From Patescibacteria group bacterium (GTDB taxonomy: Bacteria > Patescibacteriota > JACPGU01): a DNA stretch of 64,000 nt. A model generated the notes under the pieces. It made no database searches. It saw only the letters and a program-made list of their open reading frames with translations, and was not told the DNA's origin. Where the stretch lies: assembly GCA_022703645.1 (NCBI GenBank), contig JAKLDG010000001.1, forward strand, positions 75,756 to 139,755. Direction: 5' to 3'. This document shows, piece by piece, positions 4,241 through 59,179 of this stretch (the first letter of the stretch is position 1; each line of letters opens with the position of its first letter). Position numbers and translations under genes: made by a program.

Positions 4241-6031
4241 ATGAAACAAGAAAAAGCTTCACTCGATTCTATGCGTCATTCAACGAGCCATCTGATGGCA
4301 GCGGCAGTATTAAAATTATATCCTGATACGAAATTTGCGATCGGACCGTCAATCGAAGACGGTTTTTACTATGATTTCGAATTTAGTAAACCTTTGGTTG
4401 AAGAGGATTTAAAAAAGATTGAGAAAGAAATGATTGATATTAAGAATAAAAAACACGCGATAGTTGGTAAACAGATTAGTTTTGATGAAGCTAGAAAACT
4501 TTTTAAAGATCAGCCTTACAAATTGGAACTAATTGATGGACTCGAAAAAGATGGCGAAAAAGAAGTTTCGGTTTACGAGCTTGGGAACTTTATTGATCTC
4601 TGTAAAGGTCCGCATCTGGACAACACCGAAAAAATCGGAGCATTTAAATTGATGTCATTAGCTGGCGCATATTGGCGAGGTGATGAAAAAAATAAGATGT
4701 TAACGCGTATTTATGGTACGGTTTTCCCAACCAAGGAAGAACTTCACAAGCACTTGGAATTAATCGAAGAAGCGAAGAAAAGAGACCACAGAAAATTAGG
4801 TCGTGAGCTCGATCTATTTCATATCGATGATCAAGTTGGGCTCGGGCTACCACTTTGGCATCCAAAGGGCGCGATGCTTTGGCGCGTAATCGAAGATTTT
4901 TGGTATAAAGAGCATCTGAAAAATGGCTATCAATTAGTCCGCTCTCCTCATATTGGCAACAGACGTCTTTGGGAAACTTCGGGTCACTGGGGTTTTTATA
5001 ATTCCAGCATGTACCCACCAATGGAAGTAGGGCAATCGCTTGAAGAAAGACAAGAAGGAAAGAAAGCGGAAGTAAGCGAAGAATATCTTTTGAAACCAAT
5101 GAATTGTCCTTTTCATGTTCAGATCTATAAAAATGATTTACGATCTTATCGAGAACTTCCAATGCGATGGGCGGAATGCGGAACGGTATATAGATTTGAA
5201 AAAAAAGGTGAATTATCAGGACTTACTCGTGTTCGTGGTTTTACCCAAGATGATGCGCATATAGTTTGTGCTAAAGAGCAAGTCGAAGAAGAATTGGAAA
5301 AGGTAGTTGATTTTATATTATTTATCTATAAATCATTCGGTTTCGATATCGAAAGTGTGAAAGTTTATCTTTCAGTACGTGATCCAGAGATTAAAAAATA
5401 TGCCGGTACTGACGAGGGATGGGCATTAACAGAAAGTGTGCTTGAAAAAGTCGCAAAGAAAAAAGGTTTAAATTATGATAAAGATATTGGTGGAGCAGTT
5501 TTCTATGGACCAAAATTGGATTTCAAAATCAAGGATTCTCTTGGACGTGAATGGCAATGCTCAACCCTTCAATTTGATTTCAATCTTCCAGAAAGATTTG
5601 ATATGACTTTCAAAAATGCGAAAGGCGAAGATGAAAGACCATATATGTTACATCGCGCGCTATTTGGGTCTTACGAAAGATTCATAGGTTTGTTAATTGA
5701 GCACTATGCAGGGGCATTTCCTTTCTGGCTGGCTCCTGTTCAGATAAAGGTTTTGCCGGTAAATGATAAGCTCAGTGATTACGTCAATGAAGTTGTCGCG
5801 AAATTACAAGCACAAGAATATCGTGTCGAAGTAGATAATAAGGAAGAATCTCTTGGCAAAAAAATCCGCAACGCTGAAATGGAAAAAGTGCCATATATGC
5901 TGGTAATTGGGGATAAAGAAAGAGATGAAGGGGTGGTTGCGGTTCGTTCGAAAAAAGATGGGGACATCGGGTCTTTGGATGTAGAAGAATTTATTGTGAA
6001 AATCAAAAAAGAAATAGAAGAGAAGAAATAG
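4241..6031 (+). CDS. thrS: threonyl-tRNA synthetase (lacks the N-terminal TGS domain)
   Basis: RHSTSHLMAAAV matches the HxxxH motif of the ThrRS second additional/editing domain, followed by a class II catalytic core and an anticodon-binding domain. It aligns with E. coli ThrRS from about residue 70. Confidence 0.9.
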   Translation: MKQEKASLDSMRHSTSHLMAAAVLKLYPDTKFAIGPSIEDGFYYDFEFSKPLVEEDLKKIEKEMIDIKNKKHAIVGKQISFDEARKLFKDQPYKLELIDGLEKDGEKEVSVYELGNFIDLCKGPHLDNTEKIGAFKLMSLAGAYWRGDEKNKMLTRIYGTVFPTKEELHKHLELIEEAKKRDHRKLGRELDLFHIDDQVGLGLPLWHPKGAMLWRVIEDFWYKEHLKNGYQLVRSPHIGNRRLWETSGHWGFYNSSMYPPMEVGQSLEERQEGKKAEVSEEYLLKPMNCPFHVQIYKNDLRSYRELPMRWAECGTVYRFEKKGELSGLTRVRGFTQDDAHIVCAKEQVEEELEKVVDFILFIYKSFGFDIESVKVYLSVRDPEIKKYAGTDEGWALTESVLEKVAKKKGLNYDKDIGGAVFYGPKLDFKIKDSLGREWQCSTLQFDFNLPERFDMTFKNAKGEDERPYMLHRALFGSYERFIGLLIEHYAGAFPFWLAPVQIKVLPVNDKLSDYVNEVVAKLQAQEYRVEVDNKEESLGKKIRNAEMEKVPYMLVIGDKERDEGVVAVRSKKDGDIGSLDVEEFIVKIKKEIEEKK

Positions 6032-6072: not shown

Positions 6073-7497
6073 ATGAAATACTTTCTTTATATTACAGGTT
6101 GCGATATGAATTATAGCGATGCCGAGCGAATCGCCACGGTTTTTAATGAACACGGATTTTCTTTAGCTTCAAGCGAAGGCGAGTCTGATATTATTGTTGC
6201 TGTCGCTTGTTCGGTTAGAGAAAAAGCGGTACATAAGATTTATGGAAAGGTTGAGAAATGGAGGAAGATCAATAAAACAAGAAATCAAGAAAACAAAAAA
6301 ACAAAAATCATGGTTACGGGGTGTGTCTTACCGCATGATAAGAAGAAGCTGGAGGAGAAGGTTGAACTGGTATTCGAAATTAAAGAAATTGAGAAATTAA
6401 GAAATTTCTTACAAAAAATTTCCAATTTTCAATTTTCAATTTCCAATAAATTTTCAATGACCAATGACCAATATTTAAGTATCAATCCTCAATACCATTC
6501 AAAATACTCTGTTTTCGTACCAATTATGACTGGTTGTGATAATTTTTGTTCATATTGCGCAGTGCCATATACGAGAGGAAGGGAAGTTAGCAGACCGCAA
6601 GAGGAGATCTTGGAAGAAATACGAAGCTTGGTTGAAGCCGGTTACAAAGAAATAACTTTGCTTGGGCAAAATGTGAATAGTTATGGGAAAATTCTCAATT
6701 CCCAATTCTCAATTCTCAATCAAATCTCAAATCACAATGATCAAAATTTGAAAATTGAAACATTGAAGAATTCAATGGAAATTGAAAATTGTAAATTGAA
6801 AATTAATAATCCATTTTTAACCCTTCTCAAACAAATTGACCAATTAGAAGGCAATTACTGGGTTCGATTTTATGCCAATCATCCAAAAGATATGAGCGAT
6901 GAGTTGATAAATTTTTTGGTGCAATCAAAACATTTCTGCCATTATATTCACCTGCCTTTGCAATCTGGAGATGATGAGATTCTGAAGAAAATGAACCGGC
7001 ATTATACTGCTAAACAATACTTAGATCTAGTAAAAAAAATCCGCAAAAAAATTCCGGATGTTGTTTTGACAACGGATATAATTGTTGGATTTCCAGGAGA
7101 AGATGAGAAAGCATTTAACAACACGGTTGATGTTATGAAAAAATCCAAGTTTGATATGGCGTTTATCGCGGAGTATTCCACTCGTTCTGGTACGGTTGCG
7201 AGTAAACTGAATGACGATGTAACGCATGCCGAAAAAGAACGCAGAAAGAAGTATCTTAATGACGAGATCTTGGCAAAAAGTATTTTGGAAAATAACAAAA
7301 AAATGGTTGATAAAAAAGTAAGAATTTTGCTTTCAGGTATAGATAATAAAGGATTTTTGAAAGGAAAAACTGCAGGATTGAAAGATGTAAAAATACCTTT
7401 CGTGAAAACCGAACATACGACCGAAATTGGCGATTTTATCGACGTGGTAATTACGAAAGCTGGAAGTTGGGGTTTGGAAGGAAAGTTTCAAGAATAG
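6073..7497 (+). CDS. miaB: tRNA methylthiotransferase, MiaB family (radical SAM plus TRAM domain), carrying two in-frame repeat insertions
   Basis: UPF0004 N-terminal domain, a CDNFCSYCAVPY radical-SAM CxxxCxxC motif and a C-terminal TRAM domain. Low-complexity inserts ISNFQFSISNKFSMTNDQ and KILNSQFSILNQ...ENCKLKINNP are encoded by the intergenic repeat family. A TGGTAAAAT -10 box lies 7 nt before the ATG. Confidence 0.85.
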   Translation: MKYFLYITGCDMNYSDAERIATVFNEHGFSLASSEGESDIIVAVACSVREKAVHKIYGKVEKWRKINKTRNQENKKTKIMVTGCVLPHDKKKLEEKVELVFEIKEIEKLRNFLQKISNFQFSISNKFSMTNDQYLSINPQYHSKYSVFVPIMTGCDNFCSYCAVPYTRGREVSRPQEEILEEIRSLVEAGYKEITLLGQNVNSYGKILNSQFSILNQISNHNDQNLKIETLKNSMEIENCKLKINNPFLTLLKQIDQLEGNYWVRFYANHPKDMSDELINFLVQSKHFCHYIHLPLQSGDDEILKKMNRHYTAKQYLDLVKKIRKKIPDVVLTTDIIVGFPGEDEKAFNNTVDVMKKSKFDMAFIAEYSTRSGTVASKLNDDVTHAEKERRKKYLNDEILAKSILENNKKMVDKKVRILLSGIDNKGFLKGKTAGLKDVKIPFVKTEHTTEIGDFIDVVITKAGSWGLEGKFQE

Positions 7498-8172: not shown

Positions 8173-9123
8173 ATGGTGGAAAAAGATAACGAAATGCCAA
8201 AAATCATTGTTGTGTGCGGACCGACCGGGAGTGGGAAAACATCCTTGGCTGTACAGCTGTGCAAAAAATTCAATGGAGAAATTATTAATGCGGATAGCCG
8301 GCAAGTTTATCGAGAAATGGATATAGGGACGGGGAAGGGGGAAGTTAAAAGTGAAAAGTTAAAAGTGAAAAGTTTTGGAGTGCCTTCGGCACAATATTTA
8401 GAAGGGGTCAGAATTCATTTAGTAAATATTATTGAACCGAATAATAGGTATACCGTTGGGCAGTTTAAGATTAACGCGGAAGAGGCGATTGCGGATATTA
8501 TTTCGAGAGGAAAAGTTCCATTTATAGTTGGAGGTACGGGGATGTATATTGATGCGTTAGTGGATAATTTTCAATTTTCAAGTTTCAATTTTCAATCAAT
8601 TTCCAATAATCAATTCTCAATCAAAGAAAAAAGCTTAGAAGAATTGGTTAAACTTTTAGAAAAACTAGACCCGCAGGCGTTAAACGTTGTCGATCTGAAA
8701 AACCGCCGCCGTGTTGAACACGCTATTGAAGTTTGTTTGGCTACTGGAATTCCTTTTAGTAAACAGCGAACAAAGGGTGAGAGAAAATATAAAGTATTGA
8801 AATTGGCTCCCTTAGTTTCGCTCGAGCGTGAAAAGTTATATGAAAAAATAAATAAGCGGGTTGATGAGATGATTGAACAGGGGCTGGAAAATGAGGTTAA
8901 ATCGTTAGCAGAAAAATATGGTTGGGAGAGCGAGGCTATGACGGGTATCGGTTACCGTGAATTTCGCGATGAAAGCGATATCGAAAAGGTTAAGGATAAA
9001 ATTAAACAGGACACTCGCAACTATGCCAAGCGGCAAATGACTTGGTTTAAAAGAGATAAAGAAATAGGTTATATAGACCTAAAGAAAGCGGAGATGTTGG
9101 TAAAAGATTTTTTGAAAAAATAA
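8173..9123 (+). CDS. miaA: tRNA dimethylallyltransferase with two in-frame repeat insertions
   Basis: KIIVVCGPTGSGKTS P-loop and QVYREMDIGTGK motif. The start is taken at the ATG at 8173, 6 nt after the extended -10 box TGGTATAAT; the alternative start is the ATG at 8194. Inserted peptides: GEVKSEKLKVKSFGVPSAQYLE and DNFQFSSFNFQSISNNQFS. Confidence 0.8.
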   Translation: MVEKDNEMPKIIVVCGPTGSGKTSLAVQLCKKFNGEIINADSRQVYREMDIGTGKGEVKSEKLKVKSFGVPSAQYLEGVRIHLVNIIEPNNRYTVGQFKINAEEAIADIISRGKVPFIVGGTGMYIDALVDNFQFSSFNFQSISNNQFSIKEKSLEELVKLLEKLDPQALNVVDLKNRRRVEHAIEVCLATGIPFSKQRTKGERKYKVLKLAPLVSLEREKLYEKINKRVDEMIEQGLENEVKSLAEKYGWESEAMTGIGYREFRDESDIEKVKDKIKQDTRNYAKRQMTWFKRDKEIGYIDLKKAEMLVKDFLKK

Positions 9124-16205: not shown

Positions 16206-17180
16206 CTAATTCATTACCTCAAATATCTCATTTCTTCTCACAAAACTTTTTAAGAAATTCAACATAGAAATAGTTTTTATTTGGCTGGTGTTCTCATCTA
16301 TTGCTTTTAATTTCCTGTCTTGTTGGACGTTCGTAAGGTCAAAGCTATACCATCCTTCTTTAGAAAAAAGTCTATTTGGCGGATACATAAAAGAGTTTTG
16401 CAGTAATTTTTTTTGTGCGGGATAGAGCGAATAATGAACGAGATAAGAATATACTTTTGGATTGTTCTCTTGACCGATCAAAGATTTTACCAGAAATTGA
16501 TAACTTGCAGAATGATCCGGATGTCGGTCACGTAGGTGGGAAACGAAAATAATGTTTGGTTCAAAGTTCTTAATAATTTCTTTCAGATCATTTACGACAT
16601 TGATTCCGAGGTGCTGTTGTTTTGGTATGTATGTACCTGTGTACGGACTATAATTAAACCTTGTTGCTTTTGATGTATATGCTGCTCTATAGTATGTCGT
16701 TAACATTGGATTAAGCCCTCCATCAGGGAATCCAAGATAAATCAGATTGTCATCTGTCAGTCCAAGGTCATTTGTAGCCTTTTTCCCCTCTGCCATTCTT
16801 TGTTCGCCCAGAGCAACAAATTCATTTGGGTCAAGATTGAGATTCCTTTTTTCACTAATAATTGCTCCGACAGCGTCGTCACCATTGGTCATATAAACCA
16901 CTTTAACTGCCGCACCTTTGCTAACCGCTTCCTGAATCACTCCTCCGGTAGCAATAATCTCATCATCAATATGCGGAGAGATGATTAATATTTTATCATT
17001 CGAAGTAATATCGGGAAGATCGGAAAGAGAACCTTTATTTAGCAGATAACCACCAAGCATTCCCAGCCCGAAAAACCAGAAAGCATAAAGAATCGCTACG
17101 AAAACCAAAAACTTTCTGTAACGATGAGCTAACTTTAAAGACCCTTTCAAAAAAGCTTTGAAATGATTAAACGGTGTCAT
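16206..17180 (-). CDS. PIG-L/LmbE-family N-acetylglucosaminyl deacetylase with an N-terminal membrane anchor
   Basis: ISPHIDDEIIATGG and HPDH motifs characteristic of LmbE-like deacetylases. There is an N-terminal transmembrane helix. Confidence 0.7.
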   Translation of the reverse strand: MTPFNHFKAFLKGSLKLAHRYRKFLVFVAILYAFWFFGLGMLGGYLLNKGSLSDLPDITSNDKILIISPHIDDEIIATGGVIQEAVSKGAAVKVVYMTNGDDAVGAIISEKRNLNLDPNEFVALGEQRMAEGKKATNDLGLTDDNLIYLGFPDGGLNPMLTTYYRAAYTSKATRFNYSPYTGTYIPKQQHLGINVVNDLKEIIKNFEPNIIFVSHLRDRHPDHSASYQFLVKSLIGQENNPKVYSYLVHYSLYPAQKKLLQNSFMYPPNRLFSKEGWYSFDLTNVQQDRKLKAIDENTSQIKTISMLNFLKSFVRRNEIFEVMN

Positions 17181-17370: not shown

Positions 17371-17850
17371 ATGCTAAGAATTAAATTAGTTAAAACAGGG
17401 AAAAAAGACCGTCCAACATGGCGCGTGGTTGTTGTTGAAAAAACTAGAACTGGCAAAGGCGCAGTTACTGACTATATTGGTAACTATAATCCGCATCTTC
17501 ATCCAAAGGAATTTAAACTCGATATAGAGAAATATGACAAATGGGTAGGCAGCGGTGCACAACCAACTGATACAGTAAAAAGATTAAAAGGGAAAATGAT
17601 TGATAAGACAAAAGATTATCAAAAGGAAGTTGAGATAAAGGTATATAAGAGCAAGAAACCAGAGGAAGCAAAGAAAGAAGCTCCAAAGCCGGCAGAGAAG
17701 AAGGAAGAAACTAAAGAGGAAATTGGAGAAATTAAGGGAGAACCGGTTGTAGAGGATGAAAATGTGCAGACTGAAAATGTAGAGGCGAACGGCGGTTCGT
17801 CTGAAGAAACAGTTGTTGAAGATAAAAAAGCTGAAGAGAAAGCCGAATAA
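17371..17850 (+). CDS. rpsP: 30S ribosomal protein S16 with a Lys/Glu-rich C-terminal extension
   Basis: MLRIKLVKTGKKDRPTWRVVVVE...NYNPH matches the S16 family. There are about 80 extra charged residues at the C-terminus. Confidence 0.9.
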   Translation: MLRIKLVKTGKKDRPTWRVVVVEKTRTGKGAVTDYIGNYNPHLHPKEFKLDIEKYDKWVGSGAQPTDTVKRLKGKMIDKTKDYQKEVEIKVYKSKKPEEAKKEAPKPAEKKEETKEEIGEIKGEPVVEDENVQTENVEANGGSSEETVVEDKKAEEKAE

Positions 17851-18946: not shown

Positions 18947-19094
18947 TAATATAAAATTTCCTTGTGTTTTTCTGATTTTTTTGCTAAAATGTTTATAACA
19001 ATCAATAATCCTTTTTCCTTGCATAACCAAGTGCAGGGCATTAGACCAAAGAAAGGACTCTTCTTCGCGTAAAGCTATGAAGGGTAAATATAAA

Positions 19095-19814
19095 ATGAAG
19101 CAGTACGAAATTACTTTTATTGTTAGTGAAAACTATAACGAAGACAAGGCGAAGTCAATCGCCAAAGAAGTTCGTGAGTTAATTGAATCTCGCGGCGGGA
19201 AAATAGAAAAAGACGTTTTTTGGGGCAAGAGAAAACTTGCTTATAAAATAGCCAAGAATACATTCGGCTATTATTTTGTTTTTGTATTTGTAATAGATAG
19301 TGTTAAAGTTAACTCGCTTAATCGAGATCTAAACCTGAATGAGAAAATTATGCGCTACTTGATTGGTGACTATATAGAAAATACATCATTCTTTGAAGAA
19401 GTCGGAACCAAGAAAAAAGAAGGTGGACAAAAACCGGACTTCAATAAATCAAGAAAGCAAGAAATCAACAAATCAAAGAAACGAGAAATCAAGGAAGAAA
19501 TTGAAGAAGTTCCAGTAGAGAAAGTTAAGGAGGAAGCTCCGGAAATTAAAATTGAGACCCCAGAAGTTATTGAAGAGCCAGTAGAAACCAAAGAGGAGAT
19601 TGAAGAAACAAAGGAAAAAATTCCAGAAGAAATTTCTGAAAAGAAATTAGAGGAAGAGGAAATTAAGGAAGTACCTGAAATTATTGAAGAGAAAAAAGAG
19701 GTTAAAGAGGAAAAAGAAGAAGAGGAACAGCCAAAGAGAAAGAAAATGACAGATGACGAGAGAAAAGCAGCTTTAGATGCAAAATTAGCAGAATTATTGA
19801 AGGATGAGGAGTAA
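19095..19814 (+). CDS. rpsF: 30S ribosomal protein S6 with a Glu/Lys-rich repetitive C-terminal extension of about 130 aa
   Basis: MKQYEITFIV...GKRKLAYKI is the S6 core. A long EEIKE-type tail follows. Confidence 0.85.
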   Translation: MKQYEITFIVSENYNEDKAKSIAKEVRELIESRGGKIEKDVFWGKRKLAYKIAKNTFGYYFVFVFVIDSVKVNSLNRDLNLNEKIMRYLIGDYIENTSFFEEVGTKKKEGGQKPDFNKSRKQEINKSKKREIKEEIEEVPVEKVKEEAPEIKIETPEVIEEPVETKEEIEETKEKIPEEISEKKLEEEEIKEVPEIIEEKKEVKEEKEEEEQPKRKKMTDDERKAALDAKLAELLKDEE

Positions 19815-19932
19815 GAAATTTTCATTTCTCAATTCTCAATTCACAATAAATTCTCAATGATTCAATGGTCAAATATTAAGAACTGCAAAATTGTAAAATT
19901 GATTGAAAATTGGAAATTGGAAATTGAAAATT
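19815..19932. repeat. MITE-like AT-rich palindromic repeat (TTTTCAA 7-mer family), full copy
   Basis: Left arm TTCTCAATTCTCAATTCACAAT; right arm GATTGAAAATTGGAAATTGGAAATTGAAAATT, the inverted repeat of the left arm. Nearly identical to the copy at 27393..27512, which is in inverse orientation. Confidence 0.8.
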
Positions 19933-23081: not shown

Positions 23082-23813
23082 ATGAAAAAACGCCTTGATA
23101 TGCTTGTTTTTGAAAAAGGATTAGCTGATTCTCGTGAGAAAGCTCAGCGACTAATTATGGCTGGGTCAATTTCGCTTAACGGCAAAAAAGAAACCAAACC
23201 TGGATCAAGGTTTGATGAAGATGCTAAGATTGAGGTTGTTGAAAAACAAAGATACGTAGGTCGCGGAGCAGAAAAGCTTGGGAAGGCTGCCAATGTGTTC
23301 CAAATCGATTTTAAAGGCAAAACAGTAGCTGACATTGGTTCATCAACCGGAGGTTTTACTGACTTCGCGCTTCAACATGGAGCCAAGAAGGTTTTTGCGA
23401 TAGATGTTGGTCGCGGCCAGCTGGCTTGGACGCTGCGTAACGACAAAAGAGTTGTGGTAATGGAGGAGACGAATTTTAAAGATGTGAAAGAGTTACCGGA
23501 GAGAATTGATATTTTTGTTATTGACGTGTCATTTATTTCGGTTAAAAGGATTTTAGAAAATATTTCAAAATATTTCAAAATATTTAATAATATTCAAATA
23601 ATATTACTTTTCAAACCACAGTTTGAAGCAGGCAAGGCGATTGCCGATAAATACAAAGGGGTAATAAAAGATCCTGATATTCATGAGAGTCTTCTCGCAG
23701 ATTTCCGACTCTGGTGTATAGAGAATGGGTTTGAGATACGTGGAGAGGTTGAATCGCCAATTAAAGGTAGCAAAGGGAACACTGAGTTTTTATTCCATTT
23801 AAAAATAATTTAA
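23082..23813 (+). CDS. tlyA: TlyA-family rRNA 2'-O-methyltransferase (S4 domain plus FtsJ fold)
   Basis: S4 RNA-binding N-terminus, SAM-binding DIGSSTGGFTD motif and an AAGGAG ribosome-binding site. It contains the in-frame low-complexity insert ENISKYFKIFNNIQII, encoded by a (CAAAATATTT)n repeat. Confidence 0.8.
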   Translation: MKKRLDMLVFEKGLADSREKAQRLIMAGSISLNGKKETKPGSRFDEDAKIEVVEKQRYVGRGAEKLGKAANVFQIDFKGKTVADIGSSTGGFTDFALQHGAKKVFAIDVGRGQLAWTLRNDKRVVVMEETNFKDVKELPERIDIFVIDVSFISVKRILENISKYFKIFNNIQIILLFKPQFEAGKAIADKYKGVIKDPDIHESLLADFRLWCIENGFEIRGEVESPIKGSKGNTEFLFHLKII

Positions 23814-23928
23814 TTTTCAATTTCCAATTTTCAGTTTTCAATAAATTTCCAATGATTCAATGAACCAATATTGAGAATTGCAAAATTATTACATTGATTG
23901 AAAATTGAGAAATGATAATTGAAAATTT
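23812..23928. repeat. MITE-like AT-rich palindromic repeat, diverged full copy
   Basis: AATTTTCAATTTCCAATTTTCAGTTTTCAAT...CATTGATTGAAAATTGAGAAATGATAATTGAAAATTT. It abuts the tlyA stop and the next gene's start. Confidence 0.75.
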
Positions 23929-25767: not shown

Positions 25768-27512
<1,745 letters not shown>

Positions 27513-27803
27513 TTACTTAATTATTGCTAATACATCCGACTCGGATAAAATGAATAGCTCCTCGTCTTCATTTTTTATAGCGGTAGGGGAATATTTCGTA
27601 AATAGAACTTTATCACCAACCTTGACTTCCATAGGAAGCAGTTTTCCTTCAGCTGTTATTTTTCCTTTTCCAACTGCAATTACCTCTCCTTTTTGCGGCA
27701 AGTCAGCAGATATGGTTTCCGGGATAACAATTCCCGATTTTGATTCTATTTTTTCCTTGATAGGGCGGACAACAATTTTGTCTTTTAGCGGTACGAGATT
27801 CAT
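27513..27803 (-). CDS. groS: co-chaperonin GroES
   Basis: MNLVPLKDKIVVRPIKEKIESKSGIVIPE... An AGGAGA ribosome-binding site is present. Confidence 0.95.
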   Translation of the reverse strand: MNLVPLKDKIVVRPIKEKIESKSGIVIPETISADLPQKGEVIAVGKGKITAEGKLLPMEVKVGDKVLFTKYSPTAIKNEDEELFILSESDVLAIIK

Positions 27804-36904: not shown

Positions 36905-37669
36905 TTATTTCACTACATATGTCAAATTCATTGTTACCGTGATCTCCTGTTGTCCGGTTTGGATATCCGGTGCGCTTACAGCTGATCCGCCTCCCATTCC
37001 TGTTGCCTTATCGGCTGTTGCATACATTGGGACAGGAGAGCTGACTCCGCTACCTTCGTAAACGTTTATCAATTTACCAAGTTTTAGCCCTGAAGACGAA
37101 GCCATGTCGTTTGCTTTGGTCTTTGCTTTTTCAATAGCAGATTTCATGGCCTCATTTTTTGCCTTGTCTGGGTTATCAACGCTGAAAGTTAGCTGGCTGA
37201 CAGAATTCGCTCCCAAAGATGTGGCTTTTTGAATTGCCTGGCTAATCTTGGTAAAATCTCTTATCTTTAAAGTTACATTTTGAGTTAATGTATAGCCATC
37301 AATGAAGCTACCTTTATTATCTGTATAATTATATTTTGGTGAAAGATTATAGCTGCTGGTTTGAATATCTTTCTCATCAATTCCCAGAGCTTTCAACTCT
37401 TTAATGATGTTATTCATTTTGTCATTGTTTGCTGAAACGACTTCTTCGGACTTTACCCCTTCCGAGATTAATCCAAGTTGCGCAACAGCGACATCTGGGG
37501 CGACATAGGACTTGCCTTCGCCACTGACAGTAATTGTCCTTGGTTGCATATTATTCGCTCCCATGAAGCCGATATATATTGCGATAGCGCAGCCGACAAT
37601 TATTTCAATTAGCACGATTAGAACCAATACGTAAAGGCGGTTTGAGAGATCAAAACGTTTAGTTTCCAT
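36905..37669 (-). CDS. SIMPL-domain (BP26/OMP28-like, DUF541) protein
   Basis: Transmembrane anchor plus the SIMPL signature ITVSGEGKSYVAPDVA. Confidence 0.7.
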   Translation of the reverse strand: METKRFDLSNRLYVLVLIVLIEIIVGCAIAIYIGFMGANNMQPRTITVSGEGKSYVAPDVAVAQLGLISEGVKSEEVVSANNDKMNNIIKELKALGIDEKDIQTSSYNLSPKYNYTDNKGSFIDGYTLTQNVTLKIRDFTKISQAIQKATSLGANSVSQLTFSVDNPDKAKNEAMKSAIEKAKTKANDMASSSGLKLGKLINVYEGSGVSSPVPMYATADKATGMGGGSAVSAPDIQTGQQEITVTMNLTYVVK

Positions 37670-37728
37670 TTGAAATCCTTTCTAAAAAGTTAATTATTTA
37701 TTGATATTTTTACTTAAATTTAAAGTCT

Positions 37729-37854
37729 TGGAAAATTTTCAATTTTCAATTCTCAATTTCCAATCAATGTGTCAATTCTTCAATTTCTAAATTTTAATTC
37801 ATTGATTCATTGAAAATTCAATGAAAATTGTAAATTGTAAAATTGAAAATTTCC
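37729..37854. repeat. MITE-like AT-rich palindromic repeat, copy flanking the GerMN gene (downstream side)
   Basis: About 95% identical to the copy at 38787..38902 in direct orientation. Confidence 0.8.
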
Positions 37855-37856
37855 TT

Positions 37857-38750
37857 CTATGGTTGTAATATATCTTCGGTTCTTCCACCTATTGAAATAA
37901 CAACATTTTTTACGGTTCCGAACTGTTTGAGCGTCTCAGTAATCTGAGCGCGGATAGCTGAAACTTTACATGAACCGCCGACACCAGCTTGCAGCATATC
38001 ATCGAAATCAGCAGTTGCGGTATAGTTTTTTATCGTTACACTATTTAGTTTAACCCCAGTATTTATTGAGGAATAAAATCCGTTCTTGGCTTCATCTTTT
38101 GTTGGGCCTTTTAGCAGTTCTTGCAATGCCACATTTGCAGTATCTTTTGCCCAGCCGACTCTGCGAGTGGTTTCAAAAACTTTATTGCAATTCATTGTAT
38201 TCGGGTCTTTGATAGAATTGCTAAAATATACTTTTATATACATAGACTGCACATAACCGAATTTGACCGGAATAGTAACTTTATCTATTTCAGAACCATC
38301 TTTCGCGGAATACTGAAAAACTTCTAAAATTCCATCGGATCCTTTTGGTTGAGGGTAATTCATCTCTTTATTAAATAAATTAAATTCTCCAGCATCTCCC
38401 GGCAAAGTCATTCCAGATTCTTCTGCGAGAATATTCCCGCCTTTTTCTTTCAATCTTACTATATATGTCGATTCAAATACCCGCGCTTCTCCTAATATTT
38501 TCAAAGGCAGCCCAATAGTCTCGCCTTTTTTTGGTGAGAAAATATGGATATTTGTTGAACTATTATCACTTGTTATGGTCTTGTCCACTGTCGATAAATC
38601 CTGCGTGCTCTCCTTTGTTTGTTCTTGAGTAGTTGTTTGCGCGGCATCTTTTTTGGTAACCGCAGAAAAATAACCCATATAAGCTACAATAGCAAGAAGA
38701 CAGATGACGAGGATGATGATTAAGATGGCTTCAAGGTTGGTTTTCTTCAT
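37857..38750 (-). CDS. GerMN-domain protein (Ig-like domain plus GerMN, membrane-anchored)
   Basis: The C-terminus VALQELLKGPT...GGSCKVSAIRAQITETLKQF is the GerMN signature. There is an N-terminal transmembrane helix. Confidence 0.65.
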   Translation of the reverse strand: MKKTNLEAILIIILVICLLAIVAYMGYFSAVTKKDAAQTTTQEQTKESTQDLSTVDKTITSDNSSTNIHIFSPKKGETIGLPLKILGEARVFESTYIVRLKEKGGNILAEESGMTLPGDAGEFNLFNKEMNYPQPKGSDGILEVFQYSAKDGSEIDKVTIPVKFGYVQSMYIKVYFSNSIKDPNTMNCNKVFETTRRVGWAKDTANVALQELLKGPTKDEAKNGFYSSINTGVKLNSVTIKNYTATADFDDMLQAGVGGSCKVSAIRAQITETLKQFGTVKNVVISIGGRTEDILQP

Positions 38751-38786
38751 AAGTTTATTATAGCAGAAATATTGTTTATTACTAAT

Positions 38787-38902
38787 AAATTTTCAATTCT
38801 CAATTTCCAATCAATGTCTCAATTTTCCAATTTCTAAAAAGTTAATTCATTGATTCATTGAAAATTCAATGAAAATTGTAAATTGTAAAATTGAAAATTT
38901 CC
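38787..38902. repeat. MITE-like AT-rich palindromic repeat, copy flanking the GerMN gene (upstream side)
   Basis: See 37729..37854. It abuts the DUF456 stop codon. Confidence 0.8.
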
Positions 38903-39388
38903 TTATTTATTTATTACAAAAAAGACAAAAAGGAAAACGAATATTACGGCTAAAACTAATGTTGCAACCATACCCACAATTGACCCAATCAATCCACCCG
39001 TGGCAGCTTTGGCCGCCCTTTCTTTGTTTCCATGATTGAGAATCTCAGCGACCAAAATTCCAAGGAATACTCCCACAAGTCCGCCGAAAGGAGGAAGCAG
39101 AAGCGTTCCGATGATCATACCGATGATTCCAAAAAACATCGATTTCTGCGCTGCTCCTCCATACTTGGCTCCAAGCATTCCAGTTAGGTAATCATTAAGC
39201 ATAGATATTAGGGCGATGCCTGCTAAAACTCCCAATTCCCATGGTTGTAATCTTTCAAACTTATCAATAAACCCATAAATAAGGGAAATTATAAACATAT
39301 AAAGCAGCCCTGGGATAGGAAGAAATATACCAGCAAAACCAGGTAGGAGAAGAATGACAAAACCAATAAATATAATCATTTGGCTCAT
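38903..39388 (-). CDS. DUF456-family membrane protein
   Basis: Four-transmembrane protein with the PGFAGIFLPIPG and GGLVG motifs typical of DUF456. Confidence 0.6.
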   Translation of the reverse strand: MSQMIIFIGFVILLLPGFAGIFLPIPGLLYMFIISLIYGFIDKFERLQPWELGVLAGIALISMLNDYLTGMLGAKYGGAAQKSMFFGIIGMIIGTLLLPPFGGLVGVFLGILVAEILNHGNKERAAKAATGGLIGSIVGMVATLVLAVIFVFLFVFFVINK

Positions 39389-42049: not shown

Positions 42050-43762
42050 TTAATTAATTGTCTTAACCATATATGTATCTTCAAGTTTATATCCGATTTT
42101 TTTATAATATTCACGCGCTCCAACTCCGGAAATTACAGCGATTTTTTTATAACCCGCTTTCCTCGCTATTTGTTCAGCTTGGACAATTAAATTCTTACCA
42201 AGTCCCTTATGCTGCTTCGCGTCTTCTCCGATTTGTCCAACGTCGAGAGCCTGACCATATGTATGGACTTCACGAATGATAGCGGTTTCTGTAGGGGCAG
42301 GTTTGAAACCTGCCCCTACGGGTAGGCGTAACCGTAATAATGCATATAAATGAGAATGATTATCAATAAGTTCAAGGAATACTTCTTCACCGCCGGAGGC
42401 ATTGTATTCGATCTTATTTAATTTGGGCGTATACAATACGCCCCTACGAGATATTTTTGTTTTGTTGATTTCTTGTTCATTTGTTTCTTTGTCCTTGATT
42501 TCACGGCAACGGATACACTGGCACTGCCAACCCTCTTTTTGCGAATGATTATCAATAAGCTGTCTTAGATTTGTGGTTTTATTCCCTGCGATGATACTCT
42601 CTTCTGGAATATCGCGGATGAGGCGGCTGATGCGAACATATGGCGGAATGATCTTTTTTATATCACAAATTAGCTTTAGAAGTTGTTTATCTGTGTAGGC
42701 TTTATATTTTTTTTCTTTCCAGAGTTTATACAGATCAGAATCTTTGACAACAACGCAGGGATAAATTTTCAACTGATCCGGCTGGAAGTCTTGGCTAGAA
42801 AACAGGTCTTTAAACATTTGTAGGTCTTTCTTCAGATTTGAACCATAGAGTCCCGGCATCATATGATAGGAAACTTTAAATCCAAAGTCCTTCATAAGTT
42901 TGGTAGCGCGGATAGTTTCAGATACATCGTGTCCTCTGCGGTTCTTTTTCAACACTTCATTGTAGATACTCTGAACACCAATCTCGATACGGGTTGCGCC
43001 CATATCACGAAATTTCACAAGTTCTTTTTCAGTAATCAGATCAGGACGAGTTTCGAGAGTGAGACCGATAACTCGAGATTTGGTGGATTCATTTTTTGAT
43101 TGTTCAATCTGTAGCTGTCGTTTTAGTTCAACTAAATTCAACTTGCTATCTTGATATCTTGTTATCTTGTTTTTTTTCTTCTTTTGATAATTGATCATTG
43201 GGAATTGATTGAAAATTGAAAATTGAAAATTGTTGCAAGCCCTATAACATTCTTTCACAAACCAATATTGGTATTTAGTAGGCAGAGCATTAAAACTTCC
43301 TCCCATGATAATCAACTCAATCTTGTCCGTGGAGTGCCCGGATTTTTCGAGCGCAGTGAGACGAATTTCAATTTGGCGATAAGGATCAAAATCTGCGAGA
43401 ATAGCGCGCATCACAGCAGGCTCATTGGACAAATAAGATTTAGGCATATTCTTTTCGGTTGGACAATATAAACAATTTCCCGGGCAACCGTATTCCTTAG
43501 TCAGCACGGAAACAACGGCTACTCCCGAAAGGGTGCGCATTTTTGCTTTTCGCAATAATCTTTCAATATCTGAGTTTTTCTTAACCTTTTTCTTTTTCAG
43601 TAATTCTTCATAAACCTGAGTTAGCCCGTAGTTTGGCAGAGAATCTATCTTAAACTGCGTACTAATCTCGTTTTTCAGTATCATAAAATCGCGCAGCTTT
43701 GTTATTCCCCGTTCGCAAGCGCGAATAATCAGTTCTTGTTTTGCATTATTTATACTCTGCAT
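42050..43762 (-). CDS. Elp3-like radical-SAM plus GNAT protein (tRNA wobble-uridine modification family), with in-frame repeat insertions
   Basis: CPGNCLYCP radical-SAM cluster motif and a C-terminal GNAT domain (QHKGLGKNLIVQAEQIARKAGYKKIAV). The insert NNFQFSIFNQFP derives from the 7-mer repeat. The insert VGAGFKPAPT is encoded by the GC hairpin at 42291..42319. Confidence 0.75.
   Translation of the reverse strand: MQSINNAKQELIIRACERGITKLRDFMILKNEISTQFKIDSLPNYGLTQVYEELLKKKKVKKNSDIERLLRKAKMRTLSGVAVVSVLTKEYGCPGNCLYCPTEKNMPKSYLSNEPAVMRAILADFDPYRQIEIRLTALEKSGHSTDKIELIIMGGSFNALPTKYQYWFVKECYRACNNFQFSIFNQFPMINYQKKKKNKITRYQDSKLNLVELKRQLQIEQSKNESTKSRVIGLTLETRPDLITEKELVKFRDMGATRIEIGVQSIYNEVLKKNRRGHDVSETIRATKLMKDFGFKVSYHMMPGLYGSNLKKDLQMFKDLFSSQDFQPDQLKIYPCVVVKDSDLYKLWKEKKYKAYTDKQLLKLICDIKKIIPPYVRISRLIRDIPEESIIAGNKTTNLRQLIDNHSQKEGWQCQCIRCREIKDKETNEQEINKTKISRRGVLYTPKLNKIEYNASGGEEVFLELIDNHSHLYALLRLRLPVGAGFKPAPTETAIIREVHTYGQALDVGQIGEDAKQHKGLGKNLIVQAEQIARKAGYKKIAVISGVGAREYYKKIGYKLEDTYMVKTIN
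42291..42319. repeat. GC-rich hairpin GTAGGGGCAGGTTTGAAACCTGCCCCTAC located in-frame inside the Elp3-like CDS
   Basis: Perfect 13-bp stem. The same sequence occurs after priA at 13936..13963. Confidence 0.75.
43195..43243. repeat. 7-mer repeat segment (AATTGAAAATTGAAAATTGAAAATTG) in-frame in the Elp3-like CDS
   Basis: Its orientation matches the gene strand, so it is read as NFQFSIFNQF. Confidence 0.7.
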
Positions 43763-57480: not shown

Positions 57481-57518
57481 AATTTAGTTTATTATATATA
57501 AACGTTGGTTGCCAAAAA

Positions 57519-57625
57519 ACTTTCAGTTTTCAATTTCCATTACAGGTATCGCTTCGCGATATATTAAATATAAGAATTGAATCATTGATAATTGATTGAG
57601 AATTGGAAATTGTAAAATTGAAAAT
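57519..57625. repeat. MITE-like AT-rich palindromic repeat copy containing an embedded ATCGC-TTCG-GCGAT hairpin
   Basis: TTTCAGTTTTCAATTTCCAT...GATTGAGAATTGGAAATTGTAAAATTGAAAATTT. It abuts the dut stop codon. Confidence 0.7.
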
Positions 57626-58054
57626 TTATCCGGTTGAACCAAATCCTCCTCTATTTTTATCATCCATTTTCTCTACTTGAATCAGTCCCACTTTTTCTAC
57701 CGGTAAGAACATTCCCTGCGCGATGCGTTCGCCTTTTTCTATTCTTACGATCTCATCAGTAAAATTATAAGCACAAAACAGCACCTCATCACTTTCTCCG
57801 CAATAGTCCTGATCGATAACGCCAATGTGATTTCCTTGAAATAATCCTTTTTTCTTTGCCAGAGAGCTGCGCGGAGAAATAAGAAAAACATAACCTTCCG
57901 GAGTTTTAACAATAATATTAAGAGGTACGAGCACGATTGACTTTGGCGCTACTTCAATATCGATTCTTGAATACAAATCAAAAGCTACAGAGCCAGCCGT
58001 TTGATAGGCAGGCAAGGGGAGGGAAGGGTCAATCAATTTAATTTGAACATTCAT
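57626..58054 (-). CDS. dut: dUTP diphosphatase
   Basis: GSVAFDL, RSSLA, GVIDQDYCGE and RGGFGSTG motifs. The start is chosen at MNVQIKL, 6 nt after a TATACT -10 box; the alternative ATG is 6 nt upstream at 58060. Confidence 0.8.
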   Translation of the reverse strand: MNVQIKLIDPSLPLPAYQTAGSVAFDLYSRIDIEVAPKSIVLVPLNIIVKTPEGYVFLISPRSSLAKKKGLFQGNHIGVIDQDYCGESDEVLFCAYNFTDEIVRIEKGERIAQGMFLPVEKVGLIQVEKMDDKNRGGFGSTG

Positions 58055-58198: not shown

Positions 58199-59179
58199 AT
58201 GAATCTTAACGACCTGCTTCAGCAATTTCTCGAACATATCGAAGTTGAAAAAGGACGAAGCTTCAAGACGCAAGAAAACTACAAGCATTATCTACAAAGG
58301 TTTATCGACTTTGCGGCTGGTTTTGGCGTTAGTGACCCTGCTGCGATCGACCAAGATTTAATTCACCAATATAGACTCTATCTCAATCGTCTTAAAGATA
58401 AAAATTCTAGTGAAACTATCATGAAAGTAACACAGAATTACCATATTATAGCGCTTCGCGCATTTCTAAAATACTTGGCGAAAATAGATGTGAAAACACT
58501 ATCTGCGGAAAAGGTGGAATTGGCAAAACAAGAACAGCGCGAAGTTCATTTTCTTACACCCGAAGAATTGGATAGAATTATGATGGCTCCTTCGCTTTAT
58601 GAAGAAAACCCATTGAAACGTAAAAGAGATGAGGCGATTCTGCAGGTTTTATTTTCTACCGGTTTACGTGTTTCGGAATTAACAGGATTGAACCGCGACC
58701 AAGTTGATCTTACTCGCGGAGAATTTAGCGTTCGCGGAAAAGGTAGCAAACTTCGACTCGTATTTTTATCAAATGAAGCAAAAGAGGCTTTGCAAAAATA
58801 TATTGAAAGGCGCAAGGATAAAAATAAAGCGGTTTTTGTTCCACTGTATAAAGGGAAAAAACAAGCGGAGGAGCAGGAATTAAAATCAGAAAACCCTTCT
58901 TCGCATAAAGCTAAGAAGGGCAAGGAGGTTCGCCTGACGCCTCGATCTGTGCAGAGAATGATCAGCCGATATGCAAAGTTGGCAGGAATTGTGAAAGAAG
59001 TAACGCCGCATACGATGCGCCATTCCTTCGCAACAGATCTGCTCATGAATGGCGCCGATATCCGTTCTGTTCAAACTATGTTGGGACATTCTTCAATAAC
59101 TACGACACAGATCTATACGCATGTGACGAACCAACAGTTGAAGGACGTTCATAAGGCATTTCATAGTAAGAAGAAATAA
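58199..59179 (+). CDS. tyrosine recombinase, XerC/XerD family
   Basis: N-terminal SAM-like domain. The catalytic domain carries R...HTMRHSFAT...LGHSSITTTQIYTHV (the Tyr). A Lys/Glu-rich insert precedes the catalytic core. Confidence 0.8.
   Translation: MNLNDLLQQFLEHIEVEKGRSFKTQENYKHYLQRFIDFAAGFGVSDPAAIDQDLIHQYRLYLNRLKDKNSSETIMKVTQNYHIIALRAFLKYLAKIDVKTLSAEKVELAKQEQREVHFLTPEELDRIMMAPSLYEENPLKRKRDEAILQVLFSTGLRVSELTGLNRDQVDLTRGEFSVRGKGSKLRLVFLSNEAKEALQKYIERRKDKNKAVFVPLYKGKKQAEEQELKSENPSSHKAKKGKEVRLTPRSVQRMISRYAKLAGIVKEVTPHTMRHSFATDLLMNGADIRSVQTMLGHSSITTTQIYTHVTNQQLKDVHKAFHSKKK

Follow-up and report, generated by a model that had tools for sequence, protein, structure and literature searches.

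The occurrence of a single gene between two nearly identical direct repeats raises the question of how such an arrangement came about, and in particular whether the repeats mark the arrival of the gene at its present site. The locus, which centers on a gene with Gmad2 and GerMN (Germane) domains, was analyzed within a window of 64 kb, i.e., the whole stretch of DNA under study, from a Patescibacteria (CPR) bacterium. The genes, the two repeat copies (A and B) and a candidate promoter motif are given below in the order of their coordinates.

36905-37669, minus strand: SIMPL/DUF541 gene (Pfam, 4e-54)
37729-37856, plus strand: repeat copy A, a palindromic element in the GerMN-SIMPL spacer, after the GerMN stop codon and before the SIMPL start
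37794-37856: 63-nt core of copy A, without a mismatch to 38842-38904; the crossover of the single-repeat junction contigs falls in this interval
37857-38750, minus strand: Gmad2 and GerMN (Germane) gene, 297 amino acids, with an N-terminal membrane anchor (Pfam, 9e-18 for each domain)
38757-38765, minus strand: extended -10-like motif TGCTATAAT, 6 nt upstream of the GerMN ATG, read directly from the sequence; putative promoter element
38787-38904, plus strand: repeat copy B, a palindromic element between the DUF456 stop codon and the GerMN promoter/start
38842-38904: 63-nt core of copy B, matching 37794-37856 at every position
38903-39388, minus strand: gene for a DUF456 membrane protein (Pfam, 3e-29)

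A repeat search of the region placed the two direct copies at 37741-37856 and 38788-38904, the palindrome of copy A reaching 37729 via one additional heptamer unit. In a global alignment, A and B are identical at 111 of 117 positions, and the differences (five mismatches and one 1-nt indel) are all confined to a central 26-nt stretch, with uninterrupted identity over 30 nt and 63 nt on its two sides; the A-specific center of copy A reads TTAAAATTTAGAAATTGAAGAATTGACAC. No nucleotide separates the end of copy A from the GerMN stop codon, and copy B shares 2 nt with the DUF456 stop codon. The first-pass annotation of this DNA had described two direct, about 95% identical copies that bracket the GerMN gene and abut the stop codons of the GerMN and DUF456 genes, and this description proved accurate in both respects. 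It overlooked that each copy is itself a hairpin and that the pair is part of a dispersed family. On the transcribed strand, A and B each form a long imperfect hairpin, with minimum free energies of -35 and -32 kcal/mol (z of about -5 versus dinucleotide shuffles), and in the family orientation both are antisense to the flanking genes. Probes for the arms (a 31-mer and a 29-mer, with up to three mismatches allowed) gave 0 matches in 100 dinucleotide shuffles, a chance expectation of zero.

A profile constructed from A and B detected seven full and three partial copies in the window, which together occupy about 1.6% of its bases. The family element is a non-coding, AT-rich palindrome of about 115 nt (each full copy measuring about 110-130 nt), the arms of which consist of AATTTTC-type heptamer units. 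Its ends read AATTTTCAATT... and ...AATTGAAAATT; terminal inverted repeats are present, and the entire element folds as a hairpin. In addition to A and B, the following copies were found.

6412-6490, plus strand: partial, one-arm copy, in frame in the inter-domain linker of miaB (..NFQFSISNKF..)
6685-6814, plus strand: copy G, in frame within miaB
8563-8620, minus strand: partial copy, in frame within miaA (VDNFQFSSFNFQSISNNQFS)
19812-19932, minus strand: copy D, after the rpsF stop and before the ssb start
23811-23927, minus strand: copy C, after the stop of a TlyA-like methyltransferase gene; the following gene starts 1 nt away
27393-27515, plus strand: copy E, following the groES stop and preceding the ribosome-binding site/start of groEL
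43183-43232, plus strand: partial copy, in frame in an Elp3-like radical-SAM gene at 42050-43762 (NNFQFSIFNQF)
57518-57631, plus strand: copy F, after the dUTPase stop and ahead of the M16 peptidase start, with a GC-containing central mini-palindrome

For all six intergenic copies of the window, the distance from a stop codon to the start of the element is -3 to 0 nt, and the core operons that hold copies include rpsF-ssb (copy D) and groES-groEL (copy E). Copies D and E, 7.5 kb apart, are 98% identical, such that high pairwise identity is not peculiar to the pair around the GerMN gene. These two copies are inverted relative to each other and could mediate inversion of the segment between them; both operons are intact as assembled. 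An eighth full copy (H) is located on the same contig, just left of the window (L030, 12493-12605), where it fills exactly the spacer between the stop codon of an ABC ATPase gene and the ATG of an FtsX permease gene, with 0 nt to both and consequently no space for a ribosome-binding site. Copy H is in the sense orientation, opposite to the other intergenic copies. Antisense orientation relative to the genes, which was observed for six of six intergenic copies in the window and for 12 of the 14 scorable intergenic copies across genomes, is thus a tendency and not a rule.

The remainder of the window consists of housekeeping genes. No transposase was detected among the window proteins scanned with Pfam, and no integron integrase among the window proteins scanned. 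Inspection of the flanks of the seven copies gave no consistent, definable target-site duplication, since the ends of the elements merge into A/T runs and stop codons. With neither a transposase nor a target-site duplication identified, mobility of the element is inferred only from its dispersed distribution and from presence/absence among relatives, as described below.

The geometry of the locus, direct repeats bracketing one gene, would by itself be in keeping with the suggestion of the first-pass annotation that the GerMN gene arrived by repeat-mediated capture, or by duplication of a gene-plus-repeat unit, of which the repeats would be the footprint. GerMN homologues with 55-74% amino acid identity were therefore placed on their contigs and compared with the window. 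Throughout this range of identity, the GerMN gene of the relatives lies between the DUF456 and SIMPL genes or adjoins the DUF456 gene. The order DUF456-GerMN-SIMPL(-PyrG)-TsaE occurs in L005, L006 and L011, with occasional additional genes; in L009 the GerMN gene is followed by a DHH-family gene and not by SIMPL, and on L004 and L008, both short contigs, only DUF456-GerMN is visible. In L008, the closest relative (74% amino acid identity), the spacer between the DUF456 and GerMN genes consists of 12 nt (TTTTGCTATAAT) and carries no repeat. The spacer of L011 is 4 nt long and likewise free of the repeat, as are the corresponding regions of L005 and L009. The exact GerMN protein was recovered from contig Ga0116154_10000039 (244.7 kb) of JGI 3300009776 and from sibling assemblies, and the gene is retained on at least seven long contigs (0.2-1 Mb).

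Capture or duplication is very improbable in the light of these comparisons: the GerMN gene adjoins DUF456, and usually SIMPL, in relatives that are free of the repeats, while the repeats themselves belong to a dispersed family. Moreover, the window contains no second copy of the GerMN gene, and the family alignment shows no flanking gene sequence duplicated beyond the ends of the elements. Its conservation without repeats in L008, L011, L005 and L009 also speaks against a variable cassette, being the outcome that the first-pass annotation had itself named as refuting one. Judged from gene order, the GerMN gene is an old, conserved resident of the locus and not a captured cassette.

The spacers around the GerMN gene are nevertheless filled in some relatives and empty in others. 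L004 (70% amino acid identity) carries copies of the same family at both flanks of the GerMN gene, at 1725-1880 and 2853-2966. Both copies contain the same nested GC-rich insert of about 30 nt at the same position, which is absent from A and B; the copies therefore group by genome and not by position, a pattern for which a simple one-off insertion would not account. In L006 (55%), the same two spacers are occupied by unrelated long hairpins (5868-6001 and 6867-7040), one of which contains GC, the other being an AT-rich, ATTTGAG-periodic palindrome. By protein identity, the GerMN tree is ((window, L008), L004), and the repeats are present in the window and in L004 and absent from L008. This topology implies loss of the repeats from L008 or, alternatively, their independent gain at these two spacers. 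At orthologous sites, therefore, presence/absence polymorphism is observed: the spacer between DUF456 and GerMN holds a copy in the window and in L004 but is empty in L008, and a loop of MiaB is likewise filled or empty among relatives.

The motif TGCTATAAT also occurs directly before the GerMN ATG in the repeat-free relative L008 (at about 282-293). As it is common to both, copy B would be situated between the DUF456 stop codon and the likely GerMN promoter. Its position 0-6 nt before the ATG, in both the window and L008, hints at a near-leaderless GerMN transcript from its own promoter. A promoter/terminator scan at the repeats themselves gave nothing beyond the expectation from shuffles.

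Taken together, copies A and B are probably two members of a dispersed, non-coding family of AT-rich palindromes of about 115 nt, similar in nature to MITEs and Rickettsia palindromic elements (RPEs), that flank an old syntenic GerMN gene. The family is new, of a known type, and apparently unreported in Patescibacteria. Its history may be envisaged as the colonization of the genome of this Patescibacteria (CPR) bacterium by a palindromic family, the copies of which would settle in intercistronic spacers that are otherwise very short, beginning at the stop codon of the upstream gene or a few bases from it, and occasionally in frame inside permissive protein loops. A selfish repeat would be expected to survive where it is least harmful, namely after stop codons and in surface loops of proteins. 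Copies A and B would then merely happen to fill adjacent spacers on either side of the GerMN gene, and their 95% identity would be explained if they were members of the same young subfamily or had been homogenized with each other. As a by-product, the locus would have acquired a 116-nt direct repeat, with a perfect core of 63 nt, that could serve as a substrate for RecA-type deletion of the GerMN gene.

The position of imperfect palindromes directly after the stop codon of each gene bears a superficial likeness to integrons, in which case the elements would be attC-like sites and the DUF456, GerMN and SIMPL genes cassettes excised by an integron integrase. The attC sites are imperfect palindromes of 57-141 nt with core sites R'' (RYYYAAC) and R' (GTTRRRY). 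Both core sites are absent from A and B on either strand, and the window encodes a single tyrosine recombinase, a Xer-like one (58199-59179) about 20 kb away. The same element also occupies the groES-groEL and rpsF-ssb spacers and is found in frame in MiaB, and the genes that it flanks here are syntenic core genes in the relatives. The single-repeat junction described below does resemble the product of cassette excision, yet in view of the above an integron is even more improbable than capture of the gene.

Alternatively, the hairpins could be selected RNA or DNA signals, such as 3'-end protection, RNase III sites or attenuators, with A and B serving as 3' signals of the GerMN and DUF456 genes. 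The strict placement of the copies (-3 to 0 nt from the stop codon), the shared orientation relative to transcription of 12 of 14 scorable intergenic copies and the unrelated long hairpins in the same two spacers of the distant relative L006 are all consistent with such a role, as is, by analogy, the effect on translation of E. coli REPs situated 15 nt or less from a stop codon (PMC12306157). This reading is nonetheless unlikely, since the closest relative L008 and several others have no hairpin in the GerMN spacers and covariation is almost lacking. For an alignment of 10 copies, RNAalifold yielded -7.3 kcal/mol and a two-sided change in one pair only, the alignment being ambiguous owing to the heptamer arms. 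Furthermore, A, B and C differ from D, E and F as to which strand folds better, copy H is oriented the other way, and the copies in frame argue for opportunistic insertion. The elements also display neither a terminator-like GC stem with a T-run nor an Rfam match: no match with E<=1 was obtained at 37600-39000, and at the gathering threshold no RNA family (no tRNA, riboswitch or leader) was detected in the entire 64-kb window. In view of the near-absent covariation, the ambiguous alignment and the inconsistent folding strand, no RNA function is claimed. Intrinsic terminators were also considered as a candidate and rejected, as the terminator scan revealed no GC-rich stem followed by a T-run at A or B, and copies are located inside the groESL and rpsF-ssb operons.

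The copies within coding sequences bear on the preferred reading of A and B as members of an opportunistic palindromic family. The miaB ORF (6073-7497, 474 amino acids) is continuous through both of its in-frame copies. Copy G encodes GKILNSQFSILNQ...KINNPF directly after the conserved LLGQNVNSY motif of MiaB, where about 43 residues are found versus about 12 in the solved MiaB structure (7mjz), i.e., about 30 residues are added. The one-arm copies in miaA and in the Elp3-like gene encode NFQFS-type peptides. Compared with the solved Elp3 (6iaz), the Elp3-like protein carries an insertion of about 33 amino acids that includes NNFQFSIFNQF, while the miaA copy and the first miaB copy (6412-6490) cause no net change of length in the structure alignments. 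That the hosts MiaB, MiaA and Elp3 are all tRNA-modification enzymes may be coincidence or may reflect tolerant loops.

The MiaB homologues of Patescibacteria vary from 404 to 575 amino acids. An alignment of the closest homologues includes the insert-free alleles P0129 and P0147, together with proteins in which differing, genome-specific, palindrome-derived peptides occupy the same two sites. The two inserts in the MiaB of L029 (10349-10426 and 10667-10744), for example, are 88% identical to each other and belong to another palindromic family. The recurrence of inserts at the same sites suggests either insertion hotspots or homogenization within genomes. Several other housekeeping proteins of the window are longer than their Pfam domains, with about 40 additional residues each within ThrRS (4241-6031; in the core) and PIG-L (16206-17180), and long charged tails are present in S6 (19077-19814) and S16 (17371-17850). 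This additional length may represent insertions of other repeat families.

A broader model may be proposed, in which genome-specific palindromic families of Patescibacteria would, in different lineages, repeatedly occupy the same permissive sites (the first bases after stop codons and the two surface sites of MiaB), their copies being replaced or homogenized in each genome in an RPE-like concerted evolution that would add peptides to tRNA-modification enzymes and create recombination substrates able to delete genes, GerMN among them. We regard this generalization as plausible, with the balance tilted slightly against it.

With the cassette-capture reading of the GerMN gene removed, a deletion polymorphism takes its place as a testable reading. 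The first-pass annotation had also predicted that the gene could be deleted by recombination between the repeats. The exact DUF456 and SIMPL proteins were looked up in assemblies, and three contigs were found to connect the two genes across a single repeat.

L026: ENA ERZ795055, 980 nt, coverage 2.3
L027: JGI 3300009771, 955 nt
L028: ENA ERZ27257480, 888 nt

All three contigs contain the DUF456 stop codon, one hybrid repeat and SIMPL, in this order. They are 100% identical to the window from 39458 or 39482 to 38842 and from 37856 to 37455 or 37523, and the two matching parts overlap by exactly the shared 63-nt core, inside which the crossover is located. The single hybrid repeat is the expected product of recombination between A and B. 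In addition, two contigs of SRR5007146 (Logan), L003 and L024, break inside the repeats, as is usual when both branches are present. A population in which the GerMN gene is variable, with a natural deletion allele generated by RecA-type recombination between A and B, would be compatible with the dispersed-family explanation of the repeats.

Several points weigh against such an allele. The junction contigs are short (888-980 nt) and of low k-mer coverage (about 2.3x), and their ends (37455 versus 37456) and contig ranks are nearly identical, which suggests that a single read set, probably of one sample, was assembled twice or three times. Were a de Bruijn assembler to miss or clip both branches on the GerMN side, the same chimera would result, for which a rough estimate is about 10% per low-coverage sample. 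The gene is, moreover, retained on the long contigs mentioned above and conserved across relatives. The prediction of the first-pass annotation is thus borne out as far as the junction itself is concerned, which was found in three contigs, although collapse of the repeats during assembly would look the same. On balance a natural deletion allele is possible but tentative, and the odds are somewhat against it. If the junction is real, the repeats drive real gene loss. In either case, the contigs that end in repeats and the junction contigs indicate that such repeats break or mis-join metagenome assemblies, and such elements are likely to cause fragmentation and false gene-absence calls in Patescibacteria MAGs.

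The distribution of the family extends beyond this genome. A degenerate 32-nt pattern matched nine JGI metagenome contigs. Full-length members, as detected by the family profile, are carried by the metagenomic CPR contigs L018, L019 (three copies in 13.6 kb), L021 and L022, and shorter or partial matches by L014/L015, L016/L020 and L017; L021 derives from the same metagenome as L006. Most of the scorable copies on the JGI contigs directly adjoin a stop codon and are antisense to the genes. Small GC-rich hairpins, e.g., GCCCCAAAAGGGGTCCCGAGTATACGAGGGA, are nested in AT-rich elements in the L004 copies, in L022 (2026-2165) and in L019 (6436-6590). Among species-representative genomes, the 32-nt degenerate pattern retrieved no more than two half-copies, from contigs in the bins of a Saccharibacteria MAG and a 'Bdellovibrionales' MAG; this collection evidently does not include the source genome. 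A search of the literature found no report of such elements in Patescibacteria/CPR, which is not proof of novelty.

The genomes of Patescibacteria are tiny and streamlined, with minimal spacers. A repeat that accounts for 1.6% of the window and resides in core operons and in tRNA-modification enzymes is thus unexpected baggage in such a genome.

Several known systems resemble the features described here in part. The single-repeat junction resembles direct-repeat deletion by RecA or slippage, in that a lone hybrid repeat remains and the crossover lies in the longest perfect stretch (63 nt), but the evidence here is at the level of contigs, which could represent assembly collapse. REPs are GC-rich stems of 20-40 nt with GTAG/CGTC heads, mobilized by RAYT transposases. 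Membership in the REP/REPIN class was considered and rejected, as GTAG/CGTC is absent from A and B on either strand and the elements are AT-rich and about 115 nt long; no RAYT was seen in the window. The likeness to the REP/BIME/REPIN sequences of proteobacteria consists in palindromes located at the 3' termini of genes and within operons that act as recombination substrates, and the extragenic REP palindromes of E. coli are in many cases 15 nt or less from a stop codon (PMC12306157).

The MITEs (Correia/NEMIS, ERIC, RUP, BOX, SPRITE and the QMITEs of Coxiella) are similar in size, in their terminal inverted repeats and in their multi-copy intergenic spread, whereas here neither a target-site duplication nor a parent IS was identified. 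The present elements are shorter than 300 bp, non-coding and dispersed in multiple copies, possess terminal inverted repeats and exhibit presence/absence polymorphism, all of which are defining traits of MITEs. Intragenic in-frame copies also occur occasionally among MITEs, which are hotspots of homologous recombination (PMC10969869).

The RPEs are likewise palindromic, non-coding, dispersed repeats of about 100-150 bp in a reduced AT-rich genome (PMC10969869), and palindromes lying in frame have been described in Rickettsia, Coxiella and enterobacteria (PMC10969869). As in the present family, they are both intergenic and inserted in frame in unrelated housekeeping genes, adding a peptide while the ORF is kept (here in MiaB, Elp3 and MiaA). 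The family described here differs in its host (Patescibacteria), in its arms of heptamer units and in that its copies are mostly intercistronic and flush with a stop codon. No sequence relationship to the RPEs was noticed, and, the host phylum being a different one, the family is regarded as an analogue and not as a member. The palindromic repeat of this genome parallels in this manner the Rickettsia palindromic elements of another lineage with reduced genomes.
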